From Patescibacteria group bacterium (lineage in GTDB: Bacteria; Patescibacteriota; WWE3; UBA101185; UBA10185): a DNA stretch of 64,000 nucleotides. The DNA lies in NCBI GenBank assembly GCA_016926555.1, contig JAFGOI010000013.1, positions 44,802 through 108,801 on the forward strand, in the 5' to 3' direction. The notes beneath the pieces are model-generated. The model saw only the letters and a program-made list of their open reading frames with translations. It did not search any database and was not told where the DNA came from. Below are positions 2,043-61,517 of the stretch, one piece after another (position 1 is the first letter of the stretch; each line of letters starts with the position of its first letter). The translations under genes and the position numbers were made by a program.

Positions 2043-2062
2043 TTGACTCTAATTGATATAAT

Positions 2063-2320
2063 TTGCATATGCATAAAAAAGATACCGATTTAGTATACAC
2101 TCTAGGATTTTGTATTGCGGTATTACTTATATCTAAGAAGGCTTACGCTTACATAGATCTAGGCACCGGAAGTTATATGATTCAAATAGTTCTTGCTGGT
2201 GTGCTCGGAGCTCTATTTGTATTCAAAACTTCCATACTTAAAATTATCGGCAAAATGAAGGCAGCCCTTCAAAAAAGCAAAAAAAATGAAACAAAAGAGA
2301 AAGACAATTCCATTAAATAG
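2063..2320 (+). CDS. small membrane protein, hypothetical
   Basis: 85-aa ORF with two hydrophobic segments and a Lys-rich C-terminus, sitting in operon context. Confidence 0.3.
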   Translation: MHMHKKDTDLVYTLGFCIAVLLISKKAYAYIDLGTGSYMIQIVLAGVLGALFVFKTSILKIIGKMKAALQKSKKNETKEKDNSIK

Positions 2321-6184: not shown

Positions 6185-8023
6185 ATGAAAAGAAAACTAA
6201 CTGCGAAAATACAAAAACTCAATCCCACACACCAGGGAACAACTACAAAAGCTTTCGCACAAAGTTTAGTCATAGAACCGGAAACTCGCAAACTCGCGTT
6301 GCAAAAAGGCACTATTTACGCCGTATATGATATCTCCAGCGATCTCGAACTGGAACATAGTGTTATATCAAAAATCGTCCATGATATACTTCGGGATCTG
6401 TACTTCCAGTCGGAAAATATATCCCCAACACAAACTCTGGAAAAAACCATCTTAGAAATAAGAAACAAAGTCACGCAAATGGACGAAACTAGCAAAACTA
6501 GATTTAACATTGTCGCGGCAGTATTATGGGGAAATGTATTATATTCAGTACAGTTCGGCTCCGGAAAAAGCTACCTCGTCCAAGAAGGTGAAATTAGACC
6601 GATAAGTACTATCTCTGAAGGAAATTTCGCGGCAGCTTCAGGAGTAGTCAACGATGATGACGTAGTCATTCTATCCACAGAATCCTTTGACAACGAGTTC
6701 CCGCCAAAAAAGCTACTATCATCATCCATACCGGAAAATAATCTCGCGGCACAGCAGGCCGCAATACTAATGAAATTCATTGTAGACACTGAGTTTTCCG
6801 AAAACGAAATAGTAGACTTTGGTCTTGAAGAAACCAAAAGAAAAGGCAACCTGTCTCAGAAAATAAAAAATCTCTTCAAAAAACTTACTAACGCCATTAA
6901 AAAAGGTAGACTACAGGCAAAATCTACTAATATGTCAAACAGGAAATTAATCATCATTATAGGCCTTACCGTACTATTAATACCTATCGCGGTTTTAATT
7001 GTCAAGAAAAGTAAAAAAACCGAAGAACCCACAGAACCCGCACAGGAGCAACTCTTAGGCATGGATATCAAAAGGGAAACAAATACTTGGGAGGAGGAAA
7101 AAAAGAATGACGAGAAAAACAAAGTCGTCAGAATATCCCCAGAAGCATTCTTTGATATTAAAATCATAGACGACACAACTGATCCTACTGAAATAGAAGT
7201 AGTCGATGAAAAGATTATAGTAGCAGCAAAAGACAGCGGTAAAATCTTCATATCCGAGATGGAAACTCCCAATTTCGAAAAAACAAACCTTGAATTTCCG
7301 GGGGTTGAGAGTCTAAACAGCTCAAAAAGCGCCTTATCCTTCAACGATAATGAAGGGTTCAAATATTTCAACATAGAAACAGCTGAAGTAGACGAAAGCT
7401 ACGAAGATCCTGATCTTACACTTACAGATACATACATGGACTTTATATACGCCATAAAAGGCAATCAGATAATCAAGTTCACAAAAGAAAATGGTTATCT
7501 AAGCAACACAGTATGGAGCGACGATGAAAGGTTTTCAAACGCAGTGTCTTTATCTATAGCATACAGTATTTTTGTAACTACAAAGGACAGTTCGATTTTA
7601 AAGTATACTGCGGGAGAATTTGACCCTTTCGAACATACCAAATTAGAAATACCTTTAGGACCTAGAATAAAAATATTTTCCGATACGTTACTGAACGATA
7701 TATACATCCTGGATCCGGATAACAAAAGAGTAGTCATCTTCAACGATTCGGGCGAACTTATAAAACAATACAAAACGGAAAAGGAGGAGACCTGGAATAA
7801 TATGAAGGATATCTCGGTTTCTGATGACGAAAAATATATTTATGTGCTTAATGACACAAAAATATACGTAATAGGTCTTGATGTTGAAGAATTCGAAGAA
7901 GAAGCAGAGACAGAAGAATCCCCACAGGTGGAAGAAAGCGTGGATACAACAGAAAACACTTATACGAATACTTCCACAGATAATGTTGAAGTAGGAGACA
8001 CTTCCGCAGGTATTACCGAGTAA
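6185..8023 (+). CDS. bitopic membrane protein: cytoplasmic degenerate PP2C-like domain, one TM helix, extracellular beta-rich domain, acidic tail
   Basis: 612-aa ORF. The N-terminal segment GTIYAVYDISSD...NIVAAVLWGNVLYSVQFGSGKSYLVQEGEIRPIS...DDDVVILSTESFDNEF parallels PP2C motifs (DGxGGH, GDSRxYLxRDGExxQLT, LLLCSDGL), but the metal-binding Asp residues are replaced. A TM helix spans about residues 255-275, and the C-terminus is Glu/Asp-rich. Confidence 0.5.
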   Translation: MKRKLTAKIQKLNPTHQGTTTKAFAQSLVIEPETRKLALQKGTIYAVYDISSDLELEHSVISKIVHDILRDLYFQSENISPTQTLEKTILEIRNKVTQMDETSKTRFNIVAAVLWGNVLYSVQFGSGKSYLVQEGEIRPISTISEGNFAAASGVVNDDDVVILSTESFDNEFPPKKLLSSSIPENNLAAQQAAILMKFIVDTEFSENEIVDFGLEETKRKGNLSQKIKNLFKKLTNAIKKGRLQAKSTNMSNRKLIIIIGLTVLLIPIAVLIVKKSKKTEEPTEPAQEQLLGMDIKRETNTWEEEKKNDEKNKVVRISPEAFFDIKIIDDTTDPTEIEVVDEKIIVAAKDSGKIFISEMETPNFEKTNLEFPGVESLNSSKSALSFNDNEGFKYFNIETAEVDESYEDPDLTLTDTYMDFIYAIKGNQIIKFTKENGYLSNTVWSDDERFSNAVSLSIAYSIFVTTKDSSILKYTAGEFDPFEHTKLEIPLGPRIKIFSDTLLNDIYILDPDNKRVVIFNDSGELIKQYKTEKEETWNNMKDISVSDDEKYIYVLNDTKIYVIGLDVEEFEEEAETEESPQVEESVDTTENTYTNTSTDNVEVGDTSAGITE

Positions 8024-11150: not shown

Positions 11151-12089
11151 ATGGAAGCCAAGTTTTGGACGTGGATGAAAGCATTCGTGGTTATCATCCT
11201 GGCCGGAGCACTATCCGGGACGGGATGGTGGGTACTAGTCGGTCGCGGTCTCAAAGGAATCACAACCGCGCCGGGACAGGTGGCACAAGGATATACTGGG
11301 GAAGAGAATCCTTCGATTCAGATACCAGGAGGTCCTCACTGCCTGTTCGGAGGCAAACTGTGCGTCAACATGGGGGGTACCACTTTCTACCTCCCGACTG
11401 GCGAAGAAAGCTGGCTCGACGAAGGCGGCAGTGGAGGCAGTGAAAGCCAAATCGTCACGTTCGAAGTTCCGGAAGAGTCTGAGGACACGACTGGAGCTCA
11501 GACAGCACCGGAGACCAATACGGGTGGCGCAGCTGAGTACATTCGTTCAGGCAAGTGCGCCATGTACGTTGGGTTCCTCAAGGGACTTGGCGACGGCGCA
11601 GACTACACACTCGTAGAGGAACAAGCCAACGAAGTTCTGGCTGAGTGCCCCGGAAACGACGTGGAAGCCATGGAAGTGGCAGCCGCAGCAATGGGGGCGG
11701 TGGGCCTGTACAAGGCGCGACTCCAGGCGGAAGCCGATACAAGACAAATGGCGATCGACTCATGGAACACCGTCGCAATGGCAGCCGAAAGCCTCAGTCC
11801 GACGGACACACGAGGCTTTAAAAGCATCGTCACGGAGCTAGGTGGAACGTTTCACCTGGCCGAGATCGAAGGCTTGTTGCCGAAGATCCTACAGAGGATT
11901 GTTGGAGGCGGTGAGCCTTGCCATGTGTACGTCAACCCACCGACTCTTATGGCAGGCGACGTTAAGGCCGTAGAGATGACGGTTCAACTAGCCGTCCTCT
12001 GGGACCTTGGTATAGGCGCGGAAGGACATGGGCTGACCCTGCCGACAGTTCCCGAGTTCCCAGCGGACTATACACTGACGGAGGAGTGA
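11151..12089 (+). CDS. hypothetical signal-anchored or secreted protein (island gene 2)
   Basis: 312-aa ORF preceded by AAGAGGAG. It has an N-terminal hydrophobic helix (FVVIILAGALSGTGWWVLVG), is GC-rich and has no recognisable domain. It starts 38 nt after the M23 gene stop. Confidence 0.55.
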   Translation: MEAKFWTWMKAFVVIILAGALSGTGWWVLVGRGLKGITTAPGQVAQGYTGEENPSIQIPGGPHCLFGGKLCVNMGGTTFYLPTGEESWLDEGGSGGSESQIVTFEVPEESEDTTGAQTAPETNTGGAAEYIRSGKCAMYVGFLKGLGDGADYTLVEEQANEVLAECPGNDVEAMEVAAAAMGAVGLYKARLQAEADTRQMAIDSWNTVAMAAESLSPTDTRGFKSIVTELGGTFHLAEIEGLLPKILQRIVGGGEPCHVYVNPPTLMAGDVKAVEMTVQLAVLWDLGIGAEGHGLTLPTVPEFPADYTLTEE

Positions 12090-12099
12090 GGAGGCTACT

Positions 12100-12990
12100 A
12101 TGTCCAAGAGATCAAGGCTACTCGAGGAAAAGTACGCCAAAGAAAGGGCGAATCAGGACGCAGATGCCGCAAGAGCAGCCGTAGAGGAGCTGGAAAGTAC
12201 CTGGCAGGCTCGTAAGGGGCTTCTACAGCGACTCTATATCCCTCGGCCCAGCAAGCCGTCATTCCTGGGTTGGGGGTGCCTGTTCGAAATCCTCTACTGG
12301 ACGGCTGTGTTCGTGCTGTGGCTCTACACACCGAGCATTTTGGCACCAGCAGCCGGGATCGGATTGCGACTGTATATGTTGCACAGGTCAGGGAAGCTAC
12401 TGGGGACACTGCCGCAAGATGTACGCGACAAGATCGGCGGTGATGAGGATGAGAATGAGGAATCAGCCGGGAAAGGATCCGGTTTCTTCACCTTCGTGGT
12501 TAAGCTAGGGGTATCCCTGGCTGTCATAATAACCACCGTAGCAATCACCATCAGTGCCCCAGGGTTGGCAGCCCTCTTCGGACTGGTGCTGACGGGTATC
12601 AGCTTCATCTGGCTACGTAAACCAAGCCGACCTTGGCAGGACTCAAAAGGCTTGTGGCATATACACCCCGCCTTCCTGTACTCCCTCCTTACGGGACAGA
12701 TCGGGTACATGTTCCAGAGGTTCTCCTATGGACCGAAAGGAACACGAATTAGCCGCTGGCGGATCTTGAGCTTCGGACGAGGTGAAAGCAATGTGGGAGG
12801 ATCCACAACAGACATCGACGTAGATGTGACTATCCTATCGTGGTTGCTTGGCGCAGCCATTGTTACAATAGGAAGTTCCGGGGGAGATCCCGACGAAGCC
12901 TTCATACCAAGGTGGGCAGACATCGACACCATCCTCAACCACATCATGGAGAACATCAAGGACGAGGGCGATGGGGAGGACGATGAATGA
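12100..12990 (+). CDS. hypothetical polytopic membrane protein (island gene 3)
   Basis: 296-aa ORF preceded by GAGGAGG, starting 10 nt after the stop of gene 2. It has about 4 hydrophobic helices, an acidic loop and an acidic C-terminus, and is GC-rich. Confidence 0.55.
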   Translation: MSKRSRLLEEKYAKERANQDADAARAAVEELESTWQARKGLLQRLYIPRPSKPSFLGWGCLFEILYWTAVFVLWLYTPSILAPAAGIGLRLYMLHRSGKLLGTLPQDVRDKIGGDEDENEESAGKGSGFFTFVVKLGVSLAVIITTVAITISAPGLAALFGLVLTGISFIWLRKPSRPWQDSKGLWHIHPAFLYSLLTGQIGYMFQRFSYGPKGTRISRWRILSFGRGESNVGGSTTDIDVDVTILSWLLGAAIVTIGSSGGDPDEAFIPRWADIDTILNHIMENIKDEGDGEDDE

Positions 12991-23649: not shown

Positions 23650-25050
23650 TTATTCCTCGAATATCATTTGCTTTATGTTAACTATATCTTGCCTTAGTTT
23701 CCCCATTTTTGTAAGTTCTTCCCCTATTTTATCCACACCGTGCATAATTGTTGTGTGATCCCTACCTCCTAAAAATTCTCCGATGGTCATAAACGGTGTG
23801 TCTGTAATATCTTTAATAAGATACATGGCTACTTGTCTGGGGATAACTATTTCTTTTGTTCGTCTTTTCCCTTTTAAATCGGTTGATTTAACAGAGTAAT
23901 AAGTACACACATATTTTAATATTTGGTTCATATTTACAGGTATTGAAGATCTTTCTTTAATCGTGTGCCCGAGTATGTTTGCAGCGTTATCAACAGTGAA
24001 ATCCAACCCGGATGATCGAATGCTTGTTAATACCTGCATGTAAGCTCCTTCTAACTCTCTAATGTTTGTAACCACTTTTTCTGCAATAAAATCAATGACA
24101 TCATTTGGGATAGTGTCTTGGTTTTTGTCTCTTAAATTCCTTAAAATAGCTATTCTCATCTCTAAGTCAGGAGGTTGTATGTCTGCAATTATTCCTGAAG
24201 CAAAGCGTGAAGTAATTCTATCTTCAAGTTTAGTAAATTCTTTAGGTGGTCTATCTGAAGTTATTACTATCTGTTTTTGAGCCATGTAGAGTGTGTTAAA
24301 TGTGTGGAAGAATTCCTCTTGAGTAGTCTCCCTACCTATTACAAATTGGATGTCGTCAATTAGTAGGACATCCGCCTTGCGAAACTTATTTCTAAATTCG
24401 TTAGAAGCGTATTTTCCTCTTCTTCCACTTTGAATTGATTCAATTAACTCATTTGTGAATTGTTCCCCTGTTGTATAAATAACTTTCATGCCAGGTTTAG
24501 ATTGAATAATTCTGTTTCCAATTGCTTGCAGTAGATGTGTTTTTCCTAGTCCCACGCCGGAGTACATAAATACAGGATTGTATTGTTCCCCCGGTCTTTC
24601 TGCTACAGCTATGGCTATTGCATAAGCAAGGTTGTTGTTTCTTCCTGTAACGAAAGTTTCGAACGTAAATTTTGGTGTTAAATTTGATCTTTGCTGTTTT
24701 TCCCTAAAAAGATTTTCCTGGTCCTGCTTTTGTGTAAATAAGGGACCTAGTACAGTATCTTCTTCCATGCCTTCTTCTTCGTATTGTTGCGTTGTTTTGA
24801 ATACTTTGGATGTTAGCTTGCTTTTAGTGTCTGTAGTTTTGTCTATTACCATTTTTATGTTGTCTATGTATTTTGAGTCTATATTCCTTTTAGTAAATGT
24901 GTCTTCACAAATGATCTCATATTTATTGTCAGATATTTTATTAAGAGTTGCCTTGTTGCTTAAAGATCTAAATATAGGTGATTTTATTTCTATTTCACCT
25001 ATAATTGCTTTCCACAATGTAGTTGTATCTACTTGAGTTTTCTTAGACAT
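23650..25050 (-). CDS. dnaA: chromosomal replication initiator DnaA
   Basis: AAA+ Walker A GVGLGKTHLLQAIGN, a C-terminal DNA-binding domain, and a probable start at MSKKTQVDTTTLWKAI. A perfect DnaA box TTATCCACA lies upstream at 25119-25127. Confidence 0.9.
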   Translation of the reverse strand: MSKKTQVDTTTLWKAIIGEIEIKSPIFRSLSNKATLNKISDNKYEIICEDTFTKRNIDSKYIDNIKMVIDKTTDTKSKLTSKVFKTTQQYEEEGMEEDTVLGPLFTQKQDQENLFREKQQRSNLTPKFTFETFVTGRNNNLAYAIAIAVAERPGEQYNPVFMYSGVGLGKTHLLQAIGNRIIQSKPGMKVIYTTGEQFTNELIESIQSGRRGKYASNEFRNKFRKADVLLIDDIQFVIGRETTQEEFFHTFNTLYMAQKQIVITSDRPPKEFTKLEDRITSRFASGIIADIQPPDLEMRIAILRNLRDKNQDTIPNDVIDFIAEKVVTNIRELEGAYMQVLTSIRSSGLDFTVDNAANILGHTIKERSSIPVNMNQILKYVCTYYSVKSTDLKGKRRTKEIVIPRQVAMYLIKDITDTPFMTIGEFLGGRDHTTIMHGVDKIGEELTKMGKLRQDIVNIKQMIFEE

Positions 25051-25154
25051 ACTTATTTGTTGGTATAATAACATTTCGTGGACAGATTACGGGGCAGTAG
25101 ATATAAATTTAGCATGAGTTATCCACAATGATAAAGCAACGTGTGTTGGTTTAA

Positions 25155-25902: not shown

Positions 25903-26331
25903 TTATTTTTCTAAACTTTTAAAGTATCTCCTTAATATTATACCAGCAGCTAGATGGTCTTTGTGTTGCCCTCTTTTTTGGGATATTTCCAGCTCAATAG
26001 AGGCTTCAAGTGCCTCTCTTGAGGAGTCTAGTTCTTCCTGGAATTCCACTGGTTTTTTTGATATCGCTTTTAACAAATTGGCGAACTTTCTAACTTTCTT
26101 GGCCTGATTGGTATCTTTTCCGTCATGTGTTACAGGGAGTCCCAGTACATATAGATCTACCTTATTCTGCATACCGATTCTTGTTATTTCTTGTGCGGCA
26201 AATATGGAATTTTTTCCCGGGATAATATTTAGAGGTTGAACTAACTCGTTTCTTCCGAGTGCAATACCTATATTAGTTTCTCCGTAGTCTATTCCTATAT
26301 AAGTTTTTGCTGATGTGTTTCTTTTATTCAT
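25903..26331 (-). CDS. ruvX: YqgF/RuvX-like RNase H-fold nuclease
   Basis: 142-aa ORF with YIGIDYGETNIGIALG at the N-terminus (RuvX LGxDxGxKxIGVAxS pattern). Confidence 0.55.
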   Translation of the reverse strand: MNKRNTSAKTYIGIDYGETNIGIALGRNELVQPLNIIPGKNSIFAAQEITRIGMQNKVDLYVLGLPVTHDGKDTNQAKKVRKFANLLKAISKKPVEFQEELDSSREALEASIELEISQKRGQHKDHLAAGIILRRYFKSLEK

Positions 26332-27845
26332 TCTCGCACTATTTCTAGGTGAATTTTATCTGTTTCATGTGGGACATATCCGAAAAACGGAATACTGGGT
26401 CTTATTTCTAATTCATATGTTTGAATATTATTTATACCGCCAAGTGTTTTTTGGGCTTCCTCGGGAGTTTTACCCTTAAGACTTTCTATTATATCTTCTT
26501 TGTTTAACTTGGGTACAATATAGGTTTTAAGAGTGACTTGCACATCGGCTTCGGTTGGGGATAATATGCTGTTGGTTGAATTCCCCAGAATATCCACTTT
26601 AGTATCCCTATCACCTTCGTATAGCTCAAATCCTTCGGGTACAATATCCGCTACTATTTTATCCAAAAAACTGTCCAAGTCTTTTTTTGAGTATGATAGT
26701 CCTGTTGCTGTTATTTCTTGTGTAAGTGTGAGTTCTTTTGTTTCTTCACCCAGTTCGTGGCTGTACTTCTCGTTGGTTATGGTGGTCGAATATGAGCCCT
26801 CAATATATTGAAATCCGGTATTTACAGTGTTTTTCAAGGATTTGGCAGCTTTTTCCTCGGCTTCTTCTAAAAGTTCTAATGACAATTTTTCTATATCGTC
26901 CTTGCCCACAGTTTTAATTGTTGTACTTTTCCCACCCTTGAAATCAGAGTTTGCCTCCGCGGCGGCTTTGCTTTTCTTATAGTCGTCCAGTTCTAATGCG
27001 GAGCCTTTTTCTATGTTGTAGGCATCCCCTATGTGTTTTGCTTCAACATCAACCTCTTTCTGCCCGGGGATAAGAGGACTTCCCGGATCTGTAATATCTT
27101 GGGGAGCAAGTGGAGGGATTTTAATATCGTCTAAAGTGACAAATACTAAATCTTCATCGTCTTCTTTATAAGCTAGTTCGGCTCCTTTGTCTAACTCAAT
27201 TTCATCTGTTGTTTTGTTATAAATCAGTACAGTTCCCCTGGCTTTTTCTCCTTCGATTTTTTCTCCTGTTGTTTCAATTGATTTTTCATTTTTTATTTTG
27301 GTTTCAACAGATATACCCTTGAGTATTTTGTTTTCTATATTTGTGTCTGAAGTTGATGAAACTTTTACTGTGATGCTGCGTGTAAGTGGCTGTGCGTTAA
27401 CGAAAATTTTTGCATAGGCCTCGGGTTTTTTCGAGAGCATCTTTAGTCCGAAATATCCTATTATCGCGATAACTAAGGGAATCACCAAAAATAGAAGATT
27501 GAATTTCAATTTCGGAAATTTACGTTTTTTTCTGGGCTTAGTTTCTGCAGCGGACCCTTCAAATGTGGCTACTTCGTCTATACTGTCTGAATCCTCTAGT
27601 ACGCTTGTGCCTACTTTTTCCTCCATCATCTCAATTAATGTGTTTCCCTGCTCATCTGTTGTCGTGAAATGTACGCTTACGTCGTTTTTGTCGCAGAAGG
27701 AATTTATTAGCTTAAGATTAATGATGTTGTCGAAAAGAACGGAGCCATCTGGAACTATAAGTTCTATGCCGGAGTCATTGATATTTCTGATTTTATTTAT
27801 GGTGGATATTGTATCGTCGTAAAGTTCAAGTTCTATTTTAGTCAT
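26328..27845 (-). CDS. bitopic membrane protein, hypothetical (part of VirB4-like operon)
   Basis: 505-aa ORF with a basic stretch plus a TM helix around residues 105-135 and a large charged extracellular region. Its ends overlap both neighbouring genes. Confidence 0.5.
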   Translation of the reverse strand: MTKIELELYDDTISTINKIRNINDSGIELIVPDGSVLFDNIINLKLINSFCDKNDVSVHFTTTDEQGNTLIEMMEEKVGTSVLEDSDSIDEVATFEGSAAETKPRKKRKFPKLKFNLLFLVIPLVIAIIGYFGLKMLSKKPEAYAKIFVNAQPLTRSITVKVSSTSDTNIENKILKGISVETKIKNEKSIETTGEKIEGEKARGTVLIYNKTTDEIELDKGAELAYKEDDEDLVFVTLDDIKIPPLAPQDITDPGSPLIPGQKEVDVEAKHIGDAYNIEKGSALELDDYKKSKAAAEANSDFKGGKSTTIKTVGKDDIEKLSLELLEEAEEKAAKSLKNTVNTGFQYIEGSYSTTITNEKYSHELGEETKELTLTQEITATGLSYSKKDLDSFLDKIVADIVPEGFELYEGDRDTKVDILGNSTNSILSPTEADVQVTLKTYIVPKLNKEDIIESLKGKTPEEAQKTLGGINNIQTYELEIRPSIPFFGYVPHETDKIHLEIVRE

Positions 27846-29142
27846 ATTTTACTCCTGTTATTTCACTATATATTATTGAAAGGCAGGCTAGAGGCAGCCA
27901 TTCAGAATTGTTTGTTCTTCCTGTAGCGTCATTTATTTTACTTAGATCCATAAAATCAAGTTTTTTAAAATCCGGAGGCTGTTTGAAAGGAACAGATCTC
28001 ATCCAAGGCTCCTCAGATACAGTTTCTACAAGGTTTGGAATATGTGTCGCGGCTCCGGTTAGATATACTTTGGGAGAGAAGGTTTTGACGCCGCTAAATT
28101 CACCAAATAGAAGTTCAAGACCTTGCAGCCATACGTCTAGAGTTTCAAGCAAACACGAATGGACAATGGCGCTTTCTCCGGGAGTTAATTTCTCAGATAT
28201 AAATGCCTCCAACACTTTTTCTGCTTCCATGGGAGTTAAACCCATTTTTTCACCTAGATCCTCAATAAAATGATTGTATCCTATATTTAAACTTCTGGTT
28301 GCAGCGATTCCCTTTCCGAATACGACGGCTACATTAGTCGAATCATTGCTAGTATCGATGATAACGTAGTCGGTGTTTTCAAGGGAGGCAAAGTTTAACT
28401 GTTGCGCGATTGAGTATGTTTCCGATCCTACTGCAAATAAGTTAAGACCGCTAGCGTCGATGACTTTCTCAAGTGTTCTTAAGTGAAACTTTGGGCAGAA
28501 AGAGTTAAATACGGCAGTTTCAATGACCTTTCCTTCCTTCCCTTCCAGTTCGTCAATAAATTTTCCGTCCAGTTTTGTATATACGTTTGATGTGGTTATT
28601 ACTTCTAAGTCTGCGTCGGGATTACCCGTTTTATTTAAATAGTCATTTTGGACCTGCATATAGGCTGCTTCTAGAAGCTGTTTATATATCTTGTCTATAT
28701 CTTTTTTCGAAATTGGGGATTTAGTTCCTCGATTTACTCTTACAGTTGTCATTAATCCCATACACATGTCTCCTGTTACGCCAACGATAACTTGTTTGAT
28801 ATTTTCTTCCAGATCTTTGGTAGCGTTTACTACAGCAATTTTTATTGCTTCTTCTACATCGGATTGGTCTATAATTGTCCCAGAGAGTACACTTCCCAGT
28901 TCCAGCTTCTGCTTGTCATGACCTATAATTTTACAGGAAGATTCTTCCTGGTACATAACTAAACACCTCACATAAGAAGAACTTATCTCCAGAGTAAAAA
29001 ATTTATTAGAATCTCTTTGGGACTTTTTCAGGAAGGGTAGCATAACCATTGGCTTTATTTTAGAATATTTTGCTTTAAAAGGGAATTTTACCAGGAGGTA
29101 TTTTGGGAGGAGGCGGTTTTTCTGTTTCGTTAAATCCGGCAC
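27838..29142 (-). CDS. actin-fold ATPase of FtsA/PilM family
   Basis: 434-aa ORF. Alternating beta/alpha segments with Gly-rich phosphate-loop-like regions (VIVGVTGD, YVIIDTSNDSTNVAV) are typical of the ASKHA FtsA/PilM fold. No ftsZ is adjacent. Confidence 0.45.
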   Translation of the reverse strand: MPDLTKQKNRLLPKYLLVKFPFKAKYSKIKPMVMLPFLKKSQRDSNKFFTLEISSSYVRCLVMYQEESSCKIIGHDKQKLELGSVLSGTIIDQSDVEEAIKIAVVNATKDLEENIKQVIVGVTGDMCMGLMTTVRVNRGTKSPISKKDIDKIYKQLLEAAYMQVQNDYLNKTGNPDADLEVITTSNVYTKLDGKFIDELEGKEGKVIETAVFNSFCPKFHLRTLEKVIDASGLNLFAVGSETYSIAQQLNFASLENTDYVIIDTSNDSTNVAVVFGKGIAATRSLNIGYNHFIEDLGEKMGLTPMEAEKVLEAFISEKLTPGESAIVHSCLLETLDVWLQGLELLFGEFSGVKTFSPKVYLTGAATHIPNLVETVSEEPWMRSVPFKQPPDFKKLDFMDLSKINDATGRTNNSEWLPLACLSIIYSEITGVKYD

Positions 29143-41027: not shown

Positions 41028-41475
41028 TACACAAGCACAAAAAGGATTTCAGACATTTGTACTTACTCTGTCAGTATCTCTTATTATATTTAGTGTTATT
41101 TACTACTTTGTCACAAACTCTAACAGGACTCCGGATATAACTACGTCTGTTACAGAGGAAGTATATACAAAAGACACACCGGACTCAGAAGATGAGGCGT
41201 CTTCCGGAGCAGATACGGTTTTTGGAAAACTAGCAAGTCAAGAAATGGATGTTCCAAGAAGGGCTGTTTTGTCTGGAGCTACAGAAGAGACCGTAAATTC
41301 ACCAGATGAAACCGAAGAGACAACTGAAAGTACTGTTCCTAACGGGGGAGTTGTAAGCATTACATTTGGATTGTTCTCTTCCGTGCTATTCCTCCTGTTT
41401 GCAGCTTGGATGATAGGGAGAAATACAAAGGGTGCGGCTCTAGTAAGATTTGAGAATCAATTTATTAGAGATTAA
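41017..41475 (+). CDS. membrane/surface protein with C-terminal sorting-signal-like tail (motif VPNGG, hydrophobic helix, basic tail)
   Basis: 152-aa ORF with an N-terminal signal anchor and an acidic Ser/Thr/Glu-rich middle. It ends ...TESTVPNGGVVSITFGLFSSVLFLLFAAWMIGRNTKG.... Its stop is convergent with, and overlaps, the sortase gene stop. Confidence 0.45.
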   Translation: MNNSTQAQKGFQTFVLTLSVSLIIFSVIYYFVTNSNRTPDITTSVTEEVYTKDTPDSEDEASSGADTVFGKLASQEMDVPRRAVLSGATEETVNSPDETEETTESTVPNGGVVSITFGLFSSVLFLLFAAWMIGRNTKGAALVRFENQFIRD

Positions 41476-42233
41476 TCCGTTCTTACTGCTCTTATCATAA
41501 ACCTTTTTGATTTTGTTCCCGGGGGCCAACATGTCATGAGTGTAAGAGTAGATTCATTTGAGTAATCCGGTTTGAATTCTGCAAGTGGATTGATGTCGGC
41601 CGGTTTCTGTATTTCCTCGTATTCGACTCTATATGTAATTGGAACGTTATTGTACGTTATTATTATCTTGTCTCCGGTATCTAGTCTGTCAAGTGTAGAG
41701 AATATGGTCATGTAGTTTTTGGGGTTAAAAAACCAAGGAAGCACTGAATGGCCGTATATGAATGTGTTTCCCTTTTGCCCGGGTAATGCTGAGTGCTTGT
41801 AATGGCCAAGTTTGTCTTTAGGGCCCAAGTCCTCTGCGTTTGTTTCAACCACGGCGTTTTTTATGTTCAGTTTGGGTATAGATAAGTAAAAGAATTTAGG
41901 CGTGTTAATATCCATTGCTTTGGTTGTTTCTATAGAAACATCTTCGTCTGTTGGTGTAAGTTCAGTGAACTGAAAGTAGTTAAAGCCAGTTGCTACGCCC
42001 AACACACTTCCGGCTATTTCGGGAGTTACTTTTTCGTGAGTTTTGAAAAAAATCAGAGGCAGGATGACTTGCGTTACTAGGAGTACAATCCCAAGAGATG
42101 CAAATATGCCAGGTAAGACGCGAGATCTGAATAAGAAGTCGAAGTTTATGGAATGATATATGGGATCAAAGGACTCATCTTTTAGATATATTTTCTTTTT
42201 AGACTTGGGCATGCTTTTTAACCTTTGTATCAA
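41472..42233 (-). CDS. sortase family transpeptidase
   Basis: N-terminal TM anchor, catalytic His context IYGHSV, and the TLxTC signature TLMTCWP. Confidence 0.75.
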   Translation of the reverse strand: MIQRLKSMPKSKKKIYLKDESFDPIYHSINFDFLFRSRVLPGIFASLGIVLLVTQVILPLIFFKTHEKVTPEIAGSVLGVATGFNYFQFTELTPTDEDVSIETTKAMDINTPKFFYLSIPKLNIKNAVVETNAEDLGPKDKLGHYKHSALPGQKGNTFIYGHSVLPWFFNPKNYMTIFSTLDRLDTGDKIIITYNNVPITYRVEYEEIQKPADINPLAEFKPDYSNESTLTLMTCWPPGTKSKRFMIRAVRTD

Positions 42234-42931
42234 GAGTTTAACACTTTTTCAATACTTCTTGTAATCAATATATCGGGGGTTAGCTCGCCTATTTTCACCA
42301 TTTTATCGTTCTGGTAAAATGTCCTGAAAATTTCAAGCAGTGCTTGGTCGCTAAATAGCTGGGCCTGGTTTTGGAACTTATTTTTTTGAAAAGGTTTTAA
42401 AGATTCAAAAGCCGGTGAGTTGTGCTTAGCATGCGCTATGTTTTTGAGATTGTAGTAGAGAATTGAGAAGATATGGAATTCGTCGCTTCTATCACTGATT
42501 AGATGCGCTAATTCTCTGTAGGCCTTTGTCCTGTTTTTATAAAAAACACTATCAGCAAAATCAAAAATGTTTCCTTTGGGTTCTATTTGTGTATGAATTA
42601 TTTTAGCGTTTAAGGTGGTTGCGTTCTTAATAAACGTATTACTTTTTGGGAGGCTTTTGTTCGTCAGCAGAACAATACTATTATCACTAACAGCATCTTT
42701 TAAGATGGCTATACATTTATCTGCCCTTGCCGTATCAACTTTACTAATGTCCACAAGTATTAGCTCTTTTTGACCAAAAAGGTTAGTTTGTGTGACGAGG
42801 TTTTTGAAGTCGCGAGGTTCAATCTCTGTTAAATCTATTTCTTGTTTGGTTTCAATTCCCAGTTTCTTTTGCTGATTAACGACTAAACTTCTAGAAGTTG
42901 AAATGTCATCTCCATGTACTATATATATCAT
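42230..42931 (-). CDS. DNA polymerase III delta subunit (HolA)-like
   Basis: 233-aa ORF starting MIYIVHGDD, a HolA-like N-terminal beta-alpha pattern. It is shorter than typical and the assignment is tentative. Confidence 0.4.
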   Translation of the reverse strand: MIYIVHGDDISTSRSLVVNQQKKLGIETKQEIDLTEIEPRDFKNLVTQTNLFGQKELILVDISKVDTARADKCIAILKDAVSDNSIVLLTNKSLPKSNTFIKNATTLNAKIIHTQIEPKGNIFDFADSVFYKNRTKAYRELAHLISDRSDEFHIFSILYYNLKNIAHAKHNSPAFESLKPFQKNKFQNQAQLFSDQALLEIFRTFYQNDKMVKIGELTPDILITRSIEKVLNS

Positions 42932-44027: not shown

Positions 44028-44711
44028 TCACGTTTTATGTATTTTGGGCTTAAATTCGTAGGTGCGAATAATATCAAGAAAATGGCGGGGTTCCAAACTG
44101 GCATTTCCTACTAAGACACCATTTAACTCGTTTATGTTTACTATACTCTTGACGTTTTGTCTATTAACAGATCCTCCATATATAACAGGAGCTTCTTTAG
44201 GTAATAAAGTTCTGATTTCTTTAGCGCCTGCACGTATTTCATCTTCAGGTTTTTCCCGATATACTCCTTCTTGTGAGATGTTTTGTGGATCTTCCCATGC
44301 CAGGATGCACCCTTCTATATAGTAGTGATTGGCGTTCTTTGGATTTATAAAGCAGATAATGGGTATTAATCCTGTTTCTAAACACCTATCTCTTTTTTCC
44401 GTAACAATTTCCGGAGGTTCTCTTCTTTCGCTATGCCCGAGGATGGCGTATTTGCAAAATTCTTTGATCTGGAATGCCCCTATGTCTCCTGTGTGGGCGC
44501 CTTTCCTATTTGGTGATGCGTCCTGCGAAGAAAGTCTAATCGAGTCTCCTGTGAGAGAGGCTAATAGAGGTATGTGGATTGAACTTGGTGCTAGTATGAC
44601 TTCTATACCGGTGCCCTCAAAATTCTTTTTCAATTCATTCCAGTTATCAAACCACTCAAGCATTTCTCTTGAGGTCATTTTCATTTTCCAGTTCCCAACT
44701 ATATAATCCAT
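44028..44711 (-). CDS. tpiA: triosephosphate isomerase
   Basis: GNWKMK near the N-terminus and the catalytic GHSERR motif. Confidence 0.85.
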   Translation of the reverse strand: MDYIVGNWKMKMTSREMLEWFDNWNELKKNFEGTGIEVILAPSSIHIPLLASLTGDSIRLSSQDASPNRKGAHTGDIGAFQIKEFCKYAILGHSERREPPEIVTEKRDRCLETGLIPIICFINPKNANHYYIEGCILAWEDPQNISQEGVYREKPEDEIRAGAKEIRTLLPKEAPVIYGGSVNRQNVKSIVNINELNGVLVGNASLEPRHFLDIIRTYEFKPKIHKT

Positions 44712-45569
44712 TTAGTTTCCTGTTCTATTTAAATTTTGTAGTGTTTTTTCCACGAGGTTTGGTAAATTTTGAAGATCCTCGTGAGTGTAATCGTACCCCA
44801 AAATATTAAGACATGAAAAGAGGGTTCCTATATCAGAGTATATATTTTCTGCGTATCCGCAGGCAACAAGACTGTGCAAAAGTATATTTCCGCCTATTTC
44901 TCCGGTTTTTGACTGCTCGCAACCTAGTGGACAATTTGAGCAAGCCGGCTTGTTTGATGCGACTGTGTTGAGAATGCCACTTTTGTTTAGTATATATTCG
45001 TATAATTTTTGATATTCAGCCATGTTTTTGAGAGTGAAATTTTTTGTGCCCGTTATGACCAAACCCGCTACATTTTTTTCGATAAAACTCTTTTCTAATA
45101 TTTCCTCCGGGCTTTCAAAGTATCTATCCGCCACAAGATTTAGTTCGTTGAATTCAAGCACACTCCTTTTTCCGGGTAATCCCAGTTCTTTGGTTTCTGT
45201 GGGGCTTTTTTCCAGTTTTACATCTTCATTGAATATATTGATGATCTTAGCTGTAGGAGATTTTCCGCATATAACGATTGCATTTATGCCAGCAAATCTT
45301 ATTCTCAAAGATAAACTTCCCCCGATGTAGATATCCTCAACTCTGTTTCTGCTGTTTACTACTATTGACGTCTTAGATGCAAAGGGGAAAAAGCCGTTAA
45401 GGGGCCCTACGCCGAAAATAATAGGATTAGCGTCTTTATAAATTTCCATCAATTTTAGTCCAAGACCAGTCCCACCTATATATTTATTAAGGTTATCGTA
45501 ACTCTTTGTATTTGAGGTTTTTTGCTGAAGATCAATTTCTAATACTTTTTGGACTTTTGTGTTTAGCAT
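44712..45569 (-). CDS. mini aldehyde:ferredoxin oxidoreductase-like protein (AFOR N-terminal domain plus CxxCxxxC)
   Basis: 285-aa ORF. YIGGTGLGLKLM...IIFGVGPLNG...ASKTSIVVNSR...FAGINAIVICGKS parallels the AOR N-domain consensus (GGRGLG...GPLTG...KSPLTG...AGYDAIVIEGKA). The C-terminal CSNCPLGC has the AOR-type CxxCxxxC spacing. Full-length AORs are about 600 aa. Confidence 0.5.
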   Translation of the reverse strand: MLNTKVQKVLEIDLQQKTSNTKSYDNLNKYIGGTGLGLKLMEIYKDANPIIFGVGPLNGFFPFASKTSIVVNSRNRVEDIYIGGSLSLRIRFAGINAIVICGKSPTAKIINIFNEDVKLEKSPTETKELGLPGKRSVLEFNELNLVADRYFESPEEILEKSFIEKNVAGLVITGTKNFTLKNMAEYQKLYEYILNKSGILNTVASNKPACSNCPLGCEQSKTGEIGGNILLHSLVACGYAENIYSDIGTLFSCLNILGYDYTHEDLQNLPNLVEKTLQNLNRTGN

Positions 45570-45571
45570 GC

Positions 45572-45814
45572 TTATGAAATATCAAATACGTCTTTAGGGC
45601 ATATGTTTTTAATTTTTTCAACATTTTGAGATTCTATACGCGGGTCAATATCTACAGAAAAGGTAGGTTTGTTTGAGTTCATCCTGAAATCTTTTAATAT
45701 TCTAATTAGCGCCTCTTCCAGGCCGATTTTTCCGGCTTGTCTTTGTGTTTCCAATACACACAGTTCGCACCCGTTGCAATTTTGGCTTCTGCTGGCTTGT
45801 ATATTTTTAGTCAT
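45572..45814 (-). CDS. small ferredoxin-like protein (CxxCxxC...CP)
   Basis: 80-aa ORF with CNGCELC...CP, the spacing of a single [4Fe-4S]-binding motif. It lies between pgk and the AOR-like gene. Confidence 0.4.
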   Translation of the reverse strand: MTKNIQASRSQNCNGCELCVLETQRQAGKIGLEEALIRILKDFRMNSNKPTFSVDIDPRIESQNVEKIKNICPKDVFDIS

Positions 45815-45817
45815 AAC

Positions 45818-46789
45818 TTAGTTAAGAGCTTCTAATCCGATTAATGTCCCTTCAGCAAGGAATTTTAACATCGCACTTCCTCCTGAAGAAATAAAACTTA
45901 TACTATCTCGCACCCCTGCTTTTTCAATGCATGCTAGTGTATCACCCCCACCAACGACTGAAAACGCGTTATTGTCCTTTGTTGTTTTCGCAATTGCTTG
46001 TGCTATAGTCTTTGAACCCGCAAAGTACTTGTCTTCTTCATATTTTCCAAGTGGCCCCGCCCATAGAATAGTTTTTGCTTGAGATATTATTTTCGTATAT
46101 TTATCCATTGTATTATTTCCGATATCCATGGAGTTTTCAGCAGAATCAACAGGTAGCATTAAATTGTCCGGGATTTCAGTGTGCCAGTCCAAAGCTACTT
46201 TCCCTCCCAACAAAATATAATCGGCTATACCTATAAAGTTTGTTACAACGGGTTCTTTATCTTTTATTTTTGCCCCCCCAATAATGACAACAAGCGGTCT
46301 CTTAGGTTTCTTAAAAATACGTTCAAGAGTTGTAACCTCCTTCTGAAGTCTAAAACCCCCATATGACGGAAGATATTTTGTAATGCCGATAAATGAAGCG
46401 TGATTTCTATGACTGGTTGAAAAGCATTCGTTAACGTACAAATCAGCTAAGTCAGCCAAATCTTTTGCGTATTCTTCAGTATTTTCTTCTTCCCCCTTGT
46501 TGAATCTCAGATTCTCCAAAAGTTCGTAGTTTCCGCCACCGTATTTTTTATCAAAGTATGATGTTAATTGTTTGGTGGACAGATTCTTTTTGTAAACTCC
46601 CCCTGGTCTTCCCATGTGGCCGCCAATGATTGGGTGACCATTTTTTTCCAGTATGAAAGTTATTGTGTCGCTCATATTTTCGAGTCGTGTTGTGTCAATT
46701 ATAATTCCGTTTTCTATTGGGACATCAAGGTCACCCCTGACAAATACTTTTGTTCTGTTTGAAATATTAGCTTCCACAATACTTTTCAT
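45818..46789 (-). CDS. pgk: phosphoglycerate kinase (short form)
   Basis: FVRGDLDVP N-terminus, hinge and C-terminal GGGDT-type nucleotide-binding region. It is 323 aa against the usual ~395. Confidence 0.85.
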   Translation of the reverse strand: MKSIVEANISNRTKVFVRGDLDVPIENGIIIDTTRLENMSDTITFILEKNGHPIIGGHMGRPGGVYKKNLSTKQLTSYFDKKYGGGNYELLENLRFNKGEEENTEEYAKDLADLADLYVNECFSTSHRNHASFIGITKYLPSYGGFRLQKEVTTLERIFKKPKRPLVVIIGGAKIKDKEPVVTNFIGIADYILLGGKVALDWHTEIPDNLMLPVDSAENSMDIGNNTMDKYTKIISQAKTILWAGPLGKYEEDKYFAGSKTIAQAIAKTTKDNNAFSVVGGGDTLACIEKAGVRDSISFISSGGSAMLKFLAEGTLIGLEALN

Positions 46790-46825: not shown

Positions 46826-47839
46826 TTAGCCAGATATTACTTGAGCCATATCTATAAGTCTGTGGCTGTAACCCCACTCATTATCGTACCAAGCTAGTAC
46901 TTTAACAAAGTCACCGTCAATAACTTTGGTCATGTTTAAATCAACTATGGCTGAATAAGTGGTACCTACTATATCTGAAGAGACAAGGGGTTTATCTGAG
47001 ACAGCGATGACTCCTTTATAAAACGAGTTTTCACTTGCTTCAACGAATTTCTGATTTACTTCCTCAACGGTTGTTTTTTTCTCAACTAGATATGTGGTAT
47101 CGGTTAAAGATCCGACAAGAACAGGTACTCTGATAGCTATGCCATCAAACTTATCTTTTAATTCAGGTATGACTTTTGTGGTTGCGATGGCTGCTCCGGT
47201 GGTTGTTGGAATCATGTTTGTGATTGCCGCACGGGCGCGTCTTAGATCTTTGTGAATAGGCGGAGGGAAGCCATCCACCAGATTTTGTTCCGCTGTTACT
47301 GCATGTATAGTAGTCATGGCTGATTTAATAACCTTAAAGCTTTTATGTATTACGTGTGTCACTGGAGCTACGCAGTTTGTTGTGCAGGAAGCGTTCGAGA
47401 TTGCATTTTGGCCGAGATATTGATCCTGGTTTACACCTTTCAGAAAAGTCTGTATGTCATTATTGTCTCCCTTTGTGGGGGCGGACACGATGACCCCTTT
47501 TGCCCCTGCTTCAAGATGTGCCTTAGCGGCGTTGTCCTTCACAAATCTTCCTGTGCATTCTAATACAACGTCAACTTCGTATTCTTTCCATGGCAATTTG
47601 GCCGGTTCTTTTTCTGACAGGACTACATATTTTTTACTGTCGACGATTACGTGGCTATCGTCGTAGGAAACTTCTTTTTGGTAGATCCCATAAGCCGAAT
47701 CGTATTTTAGGAGATGTGCAATTGATTCTAAATCTGAAAGGTCATTTATAGCAACAACTTCAATACCTTTATCAAGAGCTATTTTGAAACTTGCTCTTCC
47801 TATTCTTCCAAATCCATTGATGGCTATACGGACAGTCAT
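46826..47839 (-). CDS. gap: glyceraldehyde-3-phosphate dehydrogenase (type I)
   Basis: INGFGRIGR Rossmann motif and the catalytic SCTTNC. Confidence 0.95.
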   Translation of the reverse strand: MTVRIAINGFGRIGRASFKIALDKGIEVVAINDLSDLESIAHLLKYDSAYGIYQKEVSYDDSHVIVDSKKYVVLSEKEPAKLPWKEYEVDVVLECTGRFVKDNAAKAHLEAGAKGVIVSAPTKGDNNDIQTFLKGVNQDQYLGQNAISNASCTTNCVAPVTHVIHKSFKVIKSAMTTIHAVTAEQNLVDGFPPPIHKDLRRARAAITNMIPTTTGAAIATTKVIPELKDKFDGIAIRVPVLVGSLTDTTYLVEKKTTVEEVNQKFVEASENSFYKGVIAVSDKPLVSSDIVGTTYSAIVDLNMTKVIDGDFVKVLAWYDNEWGYSHRLIDMAQVISG

Positions 47840-59196: not shown

Positions 59197-59976
59197 ATGC
59201 TTATAGATTCTCATTGTCATATTCCACATAAAAAGTACGAAATGCCTCCCGACCAGATTATAAAGGAAGCGAATTTGGCCGGTGTTGAAAAAATGATAAG
59301 TATCGGTACTTCTATTAAGGATAATGAAGATGTGATTTCATTGTCAGATAAATATGCCTGTGTATTTCACACAGTTGGTATTTATCCACACGATGACTTG
59401 GACCACGAGGTCCCTGATTTAAAGGAAATTCTTATTAAGCAGATAAATAAATCCGGCAAAGCTGTGGGTATAGGAGAGTGCGGCATAGACGTAACAAACT
59501 GGAAGGGAGGCCGTTCTCTTGAAGACCAAGAGGCTTTATTTGAAATGCAGATTAAATTGGCAAAAGAGTATAGGCTTCCTTTAGTTATCCACAACAGAAA
59601 CGGTGATGCCCCCGTTTTCAAGCTTCTTAATGATACAGGGGTGGAATGGCTCAGAGGTGTTTCGCATTGTTTTTCTTCAAGCTGGGAAACTGCTGAGAAG
59701 TTTTTAGACTTAGGGTTTTATCTTTCATTTTCCGGAAATACTACTTACCCCTCTGCAAAATCGCTTCGGGAAGTAGTCAAAAAAGTGCCTTTGGAAATGT
59801 TTATATTAGAGACGGATTCACCTTATTTGCCTCCGCAGGAGCATCGCGGCAAAATTAACTATCCAAAATATGTTAAAATTGTCGCTGAAGAAGTGGCTCA
59901 GGTAAAGCAAAAATCCCTAGAGGAAATTGAGAAGTTCTCGTATGAGAACACCTGCAGACTTTTTAATTTACTATGA
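59197..59976 (+). CDS. tatD: TatD-family metal-dependent hydrolase/DNase
   Basis: MLIDSHCHI N-terminus and the GECGID motif. Confidence 0.85.
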   Translation: MLIDSHCHIPHKKYEMPPDQIIKEANLAGVEKMISIGTSIKDNEDVISLSDKYACVFHTVGIYPHDDLDHEVPDLKEILIKQINKSGKAVGIGECGIDVTNWKGGRSLEDQEALFEMQIKLAKEYRLPLVIHNRNGDAPVFKLLNDTGVEWLRGVSHCFSSSWETAEKFLDLGFYLSFSGNTTYPSAKSLREVVKKVPLEMFILETDSPYLPPQEHRGKINYPKYVKIVAEEVAQVKQKSLEEIEKFSYENTCRLFNLL

Positions 59977-61517
59977 TGAAAAGTTTCGTAGAAAAAAACG
60001 ATAGGTTTGTCCAGAGATTCTTTGAAATATCTTTGGGGCTATCAACATGGGCGTTGTTAACGTCTCCTTTATGGCTCGGGTTTTTATATCCCGAGGCTGT
60101 TGTTTACATGCTGACCTTTTTAACAGTGTACTGGTCTTATCTTGCGTTTAGACACACGTATGGGCTGGTAATAGGCTATAATAAGCATAAGAGTGAGCTT
60201 AAAATTGATTGGCTTTCGGAATGTAAAAAGTTGGATTTCTCCGAACTCCCCGATAAGAAAACCCTTCCCCCGAGTTTGGAGGATGTTAGACATTTAATCT
60301 TGGTTCCTTTAGTAGCGGAGCCGGAAGGTGTCATTAGGGATACTATGGGCGGAATTCTCCGTCAGACCTTTTCTAAAAAACAAATTGTTGTAGCGTTTAC
60401 TATAGAAGAAAGGGGTGTTGACAAGGTCAAGTCGGCTGTTGAAAAAGTAATGGGAGAGTGTGGCCACGAATTCCATGATTATATGATATATGTCCATCCT
60501 GCCGGTATTCCCGGAGAGGCAGTTGGTGTGGCAGCCGCCAACAGAACTTGGGGATCTAAAAACGCTGTGGTGGACCTTGAAAAGAAGGGTGAAAATATTA
60601 GGAATTATATTTACAGTTCAATTGACGGAGACCACATAATCCATCCACAATATATATCCAGGCTTACACATTTGTATCTATCATCTGATAACAGAGATAA
60701 TCATTACTACTCAACGGCAGTTCCTCTTTTTGACAATAACCTATGGAGGGTTCCTCTCATGATGAGAATTGAGGCAAGCGCTGTTACGATGGGTGTTTTA
60801 TCGGATTGGATTGTTACTAAAAAAACCTTAAAAGATACGTTTTCTGCTTTTTCTATTTCGCTTAAAACACTGATAGAAGCCGATTACTGGGATGTGACCT
60901 TGGGAGTTGATGACACAATTTTCTATTGGAGGGCATTTTTCGCCAAAGGAGGAAAATTCGACGGTCTTCCCCATTTTATACCTTATTCCGCGGATGCTGT
61001 TGAGGGAAGAAGTTATTGGGAGTCGCATAAGAGTTTGTATAAACAGCTTTTAAGATGGGGGTGGGGAGTCATAGACTTTCCGCTATCGATGAAGGGGTTT
61101 CTTAAGGATAAGAGGGTTGCGTTTTCAAAGAAAATGGGCTGGTTTATCAAGCACATCCAAAAAAGAGTTGTCTTTGTGAATATAGTGTTTCTTATAACCT
61201 TTGGCTTCGGGCTTGTAACTGTGGTAAATCCATTAGTTAAACAATCCAATTTTGCGTATAGTCTTCCGGATATTATGAGTACCATACTTACAGTAACATT
61301 AATATTTCTTATTCCTGGCACCATATATAGGTTCAAATTGTCCGGGCCGATACCTAAGGAATTTCCGTGGTGGAAAAAACTGCTAGTATATCTGGAGGGA
61401 CCTTTAATAATTCTTAATTTGTTGACTTTCTCTTTTATTCCAACTATTGAGGCCCAAACGAGATTGCTCCTTGGAAAGAAGAAGGATGATTTGTATTTTA
61501 CTCCTAAGGTAAGATGA
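59973..61517 (+). CDS. membrane glycosyltransferase (GT2-like catalytic region flanked by TM helices)
   Basis: 514-aa ORF with N- and C-terminal TM helices and a central region with LVPLVAEPEG...SSIDGDHII (DxD-like). Confidence 0.45.
   Translation: MMKSFVEKNDRFVQRFFEISLGLSTWALLTSPLWLGFLYPEAVVYMLTFLTVYWSYLAFRHTYGLVIGYNKHKSELKIDWLSECKKLDFSELPDKKTLPPSLEDVRHLILVPLVAEPEGVIRDTMGGILRQTFSKKQIVVAFTIEERGVDKVKSAVEKVMGECGHEFHDYMIYVHPAGIPGEAVGVAAANRTWGSKNAVVDLEKKGENIRNYIYSSIDGDHIIHPQYISRLTHLYLSSDNRDNHYYSTAVPLFDNNLWRVPLMMRIEASAVTMGVLSDWIVTKKTLKDTFSAFSISLKTLIEADYWDVTLGVDDTIFYWRAFFAKGGKFDGLPHFIPYSADAVEGRSYWESHKSLYKQLLRWGWGVIDFPLSMKGFLKDKRVAFSKKMGWFIKHIQKRVVFVNIVFLITFGFGLVTVVNPLVKQSNFAYSLPDIMSTILTVTLIFLIPGTIYRFKLSGPIPKEFPWWKKLLVYLEGPLIILNLLTFSFIPTIEAQTRLLLGKKKDDLYFTPKVR

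Follow-up and report, generated by a model that had tools for sequence, protein, structure and literature searches.

The minus strand of the 64-kb window (the whole stretch of DNA that was analyzed, 64,000 nucleotides) carries a lower-glycolysis gene cluster in which two additional genes separate pgk from tpiA. We refer to the first of the pair, which encodes an 80-amino-acid (aa) ferredoxin-like protein, as fd80, and to the second, which encodes a half-size relative of the AOR/WOR enzymes, as the mini-AOR gene. In the direction of transcription, the cluster is arranged as follows:

46826..47839, minus strand: gap (GAPDH), the first glycolytic gene of the cluster, with the Pfam domains Gp_dh_N and Gp_dh_C
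45818..46789, minus strand: pgk, 323 aa (PF00162, E=5.8e-85), the upstream neighbor of the pair
45572..45814, minus strand: fd80, encoding the 80-aa ferredoxin-like protein with the motif C13xxC16xxC19...C72P
44712..45569, minus strand: the mini-AOR gene, 285 aa, an AOR/WOR-family N-domain with a compact four-Cys cluster module
44028..44711, minus strand: tpiA (PF00121, E=5.3e-40), the downstream neighbor, whose start codon abuts the mini-AOR stop codon
after tpiA, minus strand: lytR, the next gene of the cluster
42230..42931 and 41472..42233, minus strand: two open reading frames (ORFs) after lytR, called holA and sortase by their position in related loci only

The spacers between pgk, fd80, the mini-AOR gene, tpiA, and lytR measure 3, 2, 0, and 0 nt, respectively, and no terminator-like site is found on the minus strand between 41.4 and 48.4 kb. 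The natural inference from both is that the cluster from gap to lytR is a single transcription unit. The fd80 and mini-AOR ORFs lie in different reading frames. An identical entry for the 285-aa protein exists in NCBI (P0001), where it is listed as a hypothetical protein of "Patescibacteria group bacterium." The remainder of the window holds housekeeping genes, as is usual for a small CPR genome.

A Pfam scan assigns the mini-AOR to the AOR family through the N-terminal domain AFOR_N (PF02730/IPR013983), with 74.1 bits against a cutoff of 29.8. In the same database, AFOR_C (PF01314/IPR001203), which covers the pterin-binding domains 2 and 3, gives no match to the protein even at an E value of ≤1. 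The original prediction of a half-size AOR-family protein that lacks the tungstopterin domain is thus borne out. By sequence, its closest solved structures are WOR5, FOR, and AOR. Structure prediction, proposed at the same time as a check, returns the AOR fold: all nine significant Foldseek matches in the PDB are AOR-family enzymes, the best of them 1aor (E=1.7e-13). The AlphaFold2 (AF2) model has a mean pLDDT of 74 and reaches about 80 to 97 across most of the N-domain, but pLDDT falls below 50 for residues 200 to 245, so the model is unreliable precisely in the cysteine region.

We built a hidden Markov model (HMM) from 13 full-length relatives and ran it against all six reading frames of the whole window. 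The HMM matches the mini-AOR ORF only, in three collinear segments (HMM positions 3-226, 278-294, and 462-506), which correspond to the following features:

44979..45560, minus strand: AOR domain 1, approximately residues 4 to 197 (HMM 3-226, AF2, and Foldseek)
44919..44942, minus strand: C210-S-N-C213-P-L-G-C217, equivalent to C288xxC291xxxC295 of Pyrococcus furiosus AOR (PfAOR) (HMM 278-294)
44751..44888, minus strand: C-terminal module, residues 228 to 273, with HSLVAC237 and ILGYDYTHEDL (HMM 462-506)

Neither HMM positions 295 to 461 nor those beyond 506 find a match in any of the window's six frames. There is therefore no trace here of the frameshifted C-terminal remnant that had been named as a sign of a truncated pseudogene.

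The alignment of the full-length relative P0168 with 1aor displays the PfAOR CxxCxxxC motif, and CSNCPLGC, which had been read as having the spacing of the AOR cluster ligands, indeed aligns with it. We placed the C-terminal module by chaining alignments. BLASTP aligns mini-AOR residues 218 to 268 with residues 430 to 483 of P0163 and residues 234 to 268 with residues 459 to 493 of P0168, and residues 481 to 493 of P0168 align in turn with PfAOR 513 to 525. Through this chain, ILGYDYTHEDL corresponds to ALGWDFTTEDY of PfAOR (513 to 523), and HSLVAC237 corresponds to D489-SLGL-C494. From the 1aor literature, we take C494 to be the fourth [4Fe-4S] ligand. Because C237 aligns with this residue, the mini-AOR keeps the cysteines for all four ligands of the AOR cluster, with C210, C213, C217, and C237 in the places of PfAOR C288, C291, C295, and C494.

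The excision has removed the C-terminal end and, from between C217 and C237, a stretch of about 170 residues. This stretch (HMM 295-461) covers the positions of PfAOR E313, D338xxGLD, and H448, the catalytic and pterin-contact residues as known from the 1aor literature. Within domain 1, two PfAOR pterin contacts are substituted as read by eye from the alignments (N93 to Y81 and R182 to E). Judged from the HMM segments and the chained alignments, the architecture is a clean internal excision combined with a C-terminal trim rather than a plain truncation. Compared with PfAOR, the protein lacks the tungstopterin-binding region and has 285 aa instead of 605, and it is almost certainly pterin-free. 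The replacement of PfAOR D489 by His232 was considered as a sign of pterin loss and rejected, as the canonical-looking P0170 and the Methanothrix relative already have Asn at this position.

One could suppose that another gene provides the pterin domains in trans, leaving a split enzyme that is still a W/Mo aldehyde or GAP oxidoreductase; multi-subunit WORs of Classes II to V are known (PMC13328260). We hold this to be very unlikely, as AFOR_C-like sequence is absent from every frame of the 64-kb window, and in the syntenic loci examined the only AFOR_C genes are those of the full-length AORs described below as group B. The retained equivalent of C494 also falls within the range of the missing domain, unlike what a simple gene split would leave. 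To our knowledge, CPR genomes lack biosynthesis of the cofactor, which counts against this reading as well.

A protein search recovered 412 homologs of the mini-AOR. Among the 120 matches listed, nearly all are 276 to 287 aa long, and the named sources are WWE3 or Patescibacteria. Database labels for family members are "hypothetical protein" and [quoted passage not shown] Among 1.84 billion cluster representatives, a profile search picked out about 40 full-length mini representatives of 270 to 302 aa. In a set of 179 unique sequences, C210, C213, C217, and C237 are present in 178/178 mini-AOR sequences, and a fifth cysteine, C253, is present in 175 of the 178. The most conserved block of the protein comprises residues ~211 to 270, that is, the Cys region and C-terminal module (block conservation, 0.81 to 0.87). 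The four ligand cysteines persist in about 30 divergent cluster representatives, with P0129 as the sole exception.

To gauge selection, we calculated dN/dS by the Nei-Gojobori method for several pairs; dS is often near saturation, and the values are accordingly rough:

mini-AOR gene: 0.025-0.076
fd80: 0.006-0.063 (seven pairs)
gap: 0.03-0.09
pgk: 0.04-0.20
tpiA: 0.06-0.13

One near-identical fd80 pair gave a dN/dS of 0.68 at a dS of 0.017 and is uninformative. Constraint on both inserted genes is no weaker than on the surrounding glycolytic enzymes. The original prediction had offered a degenerate remnant as one possibility, and a decaying pseudogene without function would fit a protein that corresponds to only part of a larger enzyme, as well as the repeated losses of cysteines and domains in the wider clade. 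The selection data refute this reading, to which we give almost no credence: dN/dS is as low as that of GAPDH, about 180 sequences, at identities down to 40%, have an uninterrupted reading frame, length is steady at about 280 aa, and the four cysteines are universal among the minis. Since the mini-AOR evolves as slowly as the glycolytic enzymes, it is clearly functional, a working protein rather than a relic, and its role is probably new.

The small partner is similarly well conserved. Its motif C13xxC16xxC19...C72P is invariant in 73 fd80 orthologs, and likewise in a 40-sequence alignment, which sustains the earlier view of a one-cluster ferredoxin-like partner inside the gap-pgk-tpiA operon. 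The 80-aa protein of the window itself passes no Pfam threshold; weak matches to PF00037 (Fer4) occur in 21 of 24 orthologs (best E=1.9e-4). The family numbers 489 matches of 83 to 104 aa, some of them named ferredoxin. Its taxonomic spread matches that of the mini-AOR, and as far as sources are named, both families are confined to WWE3/Patescibacteria. Its AF2 model is confident (pLDDT, 87). Foldseek returns nothing for this model at an E value of ≤0.001. The best weak match is AorA of the Aromatoleum tungsten AOR (8c0z_C; E=0.11, probability 0.85), and other weak structural matches are NdhI, FwdG, and the WOR5 small subunit. We identify the 80-aa protein from its motif, together with these weak profile and fold matches, as ferredoxin-like with one predicted [4Fe-4S] cluster.

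The two-gene insert is conserved in related genomes, as had been suspected. The order fd80, mini-AOR, tpiA, and lytR is found in 72/72 WWE3 species-representative loci, wherever the contig reaches, and is usually preceded by trx-gap-pgk. In eight loci (L016, L017, L027, L033, L034, L060, L065, and L075), gap is directly followed by fd80, with no pgk within 5 kb, and L050 is also without a nearby pgk. The pair recurs in two divergent loci (L084 and L086): the P0155 locus among them encodes a 30%-identical mini form in the order pgk-78aa-mini-TIM-lytR. A 217-aa "ultra-mini," P0193, is arranged as pgk-80aa-mini-TIM-lytR. In both divergent loci, tpiA again follows the mini-AOR gene; no other gene accompanies the pair as constantly. 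The P0155 locus adjoins a divergently oriented NiFe hydrogenase cluster. However, lytR, holA, and sortase are syntenic too, and gene order alone is therefore no proof of a glycolytic role.

The original prediction had linked the protein to a GAPOR-type bypass of GAPDH and PGK. An active bypass of the GAPOR or GOR type would account for the position in a glycolytic operon and for the missing pgk between gap and the pair in eight species loci. It also has a known bacterial precedent in CbGOR of Caldicellulosiruptor bescii, a two-subunit GAP-oxidizing WOR that works in glycolysis (PMC13328260). The architecture effectively refutes this explanation, which we regard as extremely improbable: the pterin pocket and the catalytic residues are deleted. 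GAPDH, moreover, is retained beside the pair wherever the flank reaches it, including in eight of the nine loci that lack a nearby pgk. Archaeal GAPOR (NCBIfam NF040818) also belongs to the AOR family and is functionally placed in glycolysis, but no specific relationship to it is detectable. The mini-AOR has no match to GAPOR_Arch at an E value of ≤1, and its full-length relatives score 18 to 34 bits against a cutoff of 1300, so the GAPOR link does not hold. A Methanothrix 578-aa AOR, encoded next to a polyferredoxin and an FBP aldolase/phosphatase, was considered as a GAPOR-type lead and dropped; it scores only 24.7 bits against GAPOR_Arch, and its locus was pattern selected, having been recovered through GPLNG[FYL]FP.

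The nearest full-length relatives of the mini-AOR, which we term group B, come from sister lineages related to WWE3 and are P0163, P0165, P0167, P0168, P0172, P0175, and P0185 (538 to 554 aa). In the six loci examined (all but that of P0172), the gene holds the chromosomal position of the mini-AOR gene immediately ahead of lytR, with holA and sortase next where the contig reaches, and in none of these six does tpiA lie between the AOR gene and lytR. The small Cys protein precedes P0163, P0165, and P0167; before P0168 stands an ORF that is cut by the contig end and has the same C-terminal tail; and no such protein precedes P0175 or P0185. Group B proteins keep AFOR_C and share the tail GCGY...LGxxxxHE with the mini-AOR. 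All of them lack the GYHTG and RHSH motifs of canonical-looking relatives of ~567 to 604 aa, and three of the seven have none of the four cluster cysteines. By sequence, then, these full-length relatives look degenerate. A neighbor-joining tree of the N-domain, which is crude and carries no support values, resolves group B as a grade between the canonical relatives and the mini forms. This placement is consistent with a stepwise reduction from ~590 to ~550 to ~285 to ~200-217 aa.

Four relatives that have none of the cluster cysteines (P0165, P0167, P0172, and the 198-aa P0207) are nevertheless maintained at this locus. Even these proteins keep the GPLxG and LGYxYTHE motifs, and the small partner retains its cysteines even next to Cys-less AORs. 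The persistence of Cys-less relatives and the two full-length proteins that lack the small ferredoxin indicate that redox pairing is not obligatory in the wider clade.

The Cys-less relatives also bear on the main rival to a redox function, namely, a non-redox scaffold or regulator in which the AOR N-domain and the LGYDYTHE(D/E)L helix would bind another protein, with TPI as the obvious candidate, and the cluster would be structural or dispensable. Such a role would explain why the Cys-less forms remain at the locus with both motifs conserved. It would also agree with the constant presence of tpiA beside the mini and ultra-mini genes, in contrast to 6/6 full-length relatives without tpiA alongside, and with the conserved noncanonical loop 6 (lid loop) of the WWE3 TPI. 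Yet a dispensable cluster is hard to square with four cysteines in every one of the 178 minis and with a Cys module that is more conserved than any other part of the protein, and we consider the scaffold role unlikely.

Among described systems, the pair of proteins recalls PfAOR and its ferredoxin. P. furiosus ferredoxin is a one-cluster protein, and the motif in the partner of the mini-AOR, CxxCxxC...CP, likewise corresponds to one cluster. Of the systems described so far, the Class II WORs (WorL plus WorS), such as P. furiosus WOR5/ASOR (PDB 6x1o) and C. bescii GOR, come closest. As in these enzymes, the gene for the larger protein adjoins a small Fe-S-type gene, fd80 being located upstream in 72/72 WWE3 loci. 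Unlike them, the mini-AOR lacks about 250 to 300 residues of domains 2 and 3, including the pterin pocket and the catalytic residues. The small partners differ as well: WorS has four [4Fe-4S] clusters (IPR017896; PMC13328260), whereas fd80 has one Cys motif.

We consider it probable, with appreciable room for doubt, that fd80 and the mini-AOR are a conserved, functional two-protein Fe-S module derived from a two-subunit WOR/AOR that has lost its tungstopterin site. Going by the motifs, the pair would bind two [4Fe-4S] clusters, and single electrons may pass between them in the way that AOR works with ferredoxin or WorL with WorS. With the pterin pocket gone, the module would oxidize neither aldehydes nor glyceraldehyde-3-phosphate. 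Its role would probably be that of a redox sensor, or of an electron relay linked to ferredoxin, coexpressed with lower glycolysis. WWE3 genomes encode PFOR, ADP-forming acetyl-CoA synthetase, and a type 3b hydrogenase (PMC3812714), indicating that reduced ferredoxin is part of their fermentation. The original prediction's second suggestion, a small redox partner of a new kind that works on triose phosphates, is possible, and the evidence gathered here concerns its redox-module part only.

A direct action on such a metabolite could take the form of new catalysis, either at the [4Fe-4S] cluster or at the fifth conserved cysteine, with a triose-phosphate-related compound as the substrate. Selection is very strong on residues around the cluster, namely E224, G227, C253 (175/178), H263, and E264, and the gene lies between pgk and tpiA. 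On the other hand, all four canonical ligands are kept, which leaves no obvious open iron site, and profile and fold searches found no similarity to Fe-S dehydratases or radical enzymes. New catalysis is accordingly improbable in our estimation.

A bolder extension of the two-protein Fe-S module would join the mini-AOR, the ferredoxin, and the unusual WWE3 TPI functionally, so that an Fe-S redox switch or electron relay would be in physical association with TPI. Excision of the pterin domains from an ancestral glycolysis-linked WOR may have given rise to such a unit. Coupling to TPI would explain why every mini and ultra-mini gene is followed by tpiA and no full-length relative at the locus is, and it would also explain the conservation of a noncanonical TPI lid loop in the phylum. 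We put it forward as a doubtful proposal.

With the mini-AOR, a known enzyme family gains a structural variant that is new and occurs throughout a phylum. Tungstopterin is the defining feature of AOR/WOR enzymes, and the WWE3 candidate phylum keeps a version from which the cofactor domains have been cut out, with the Fe-S site and the partner ferredoxin preserved under GAPDH-level constraint. If the Fe-S module is real, it would represent a natural reuse of the electron-transfer half of an enzyme after loss of the catalytic half, and in organisms that are believed not to synthesize the cofactor. The central carbon operon of WWE3/Katanobacteria is also extended by the pair, a so far unexplained component that is conserved universally.

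Full-text literature searches found no description of the mini-AOR family. A family-wide classification of WORs chose sequences with both the N- and C-terminal InterPro domains (PMC13328260), and N-only proteins such as the mini-AOR thus fall outside its scope. Kantor et al. (2013) list "a ferredoxin oxidoreductase-like protein" among the electron carriers of WWE3 without further comment (PMC3812714), and this mention is possibly the sole earlier reference to the mini-AOR.

The phosphoglycerate kinase of the window is encoded by the gene preceding the ferredoxin-like gene:

45818-46789, pgk, with a product of only 323 aa

Two stretches of this protein align to the Pfam model, which has 379 positions, and its WWE3 orthologues are of comparable length (319 to 325 aa). 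At eight of the compared WWE3 species loci (L016, L017, L027, L033, L034, L060, L065, and L075), and likewise at L050, pgk is found neither between gap and the ferredoxin-like gene nor in the 5-kb flanks. The WWE3 triose-phosphate isomerases, comprising the product of the window tpiA (44028-44711) and its orthologues in L001 to L076, retain the catalytic Lys, His, and Glu in all cases (70 of 70). Lid loop 6 reads AWEDPxNISxxG in every orthologue listed for these loci, in contrast to the canonical YEPVWAIGTG, with an Escherichia coli sequence as the reference.

At L087, L088, L089, and L090 to L094, the mini-AOR slot before lytR-holA-sortase is held by degenerate full-length AOR-like genes encoding 538 to 554 aa, and tpiA adjoins none of them in this set. 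Three of the seven representative proteins lack all cluster cysteines, and the small ferredoxin gene is missing at two of the loci.

The "ultra-mini" relatives P0193, P0191, and P0207 (198 to 217 aa) retain only approximately 100 residues of the N-domain, together with the Cys/LGYDYTHEEL module; P0207 has lost the CxxCxxxC motif. The features concerned, including a hydrogenase-like cluster at the distant mini-AOR locus L084 and a Methanotrichaceae locus, are as follows:

L086, 466-1119, P0193, "ultra-mini" relative
L084, 804-4622, four-gene NiFe hydrogenase-like cluster, divergently upstream of pgk
L077, 1837-6734, canonical-looking 578-aa AOR and neighbors, Methanotrichaceae

The L084 cluster encodes NiFeSe_Hases, Oxidored_q6, an FAD/NAD-binding subunit, and Fer4_22. 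In L077, a 178-aa polyferredoxin directly precedes the AOR, which is also adjoined by a RuBisCO-like ORF and by an ORF that, recognized by eye, is presumably an FBP aldolase/phosphatase. This AOR scores only 24.7 bits against GAPOR_Arch (cutoff, 1300 bits) and may be a gluconeogenesis-linked WOR.

Elsewhere in the window, several large ORFs of 296 to 612 aa (540-3680, 6185-8023, 11151-12990, and 59973-61517) have no Pfam match at an E value of ≤1e-5. The window also contains the following:

23650-25074, dnaA
29075-31525, ORF for an 816-aa product carrying DUF87/HerA and TraG-D_C domains

The gene for the 816-aa product is flanked by two large ORFs (26328-29142) that match no Pfam family, and this arrangement hints at a conjugation or type IV secretion-like element close to the origin region.
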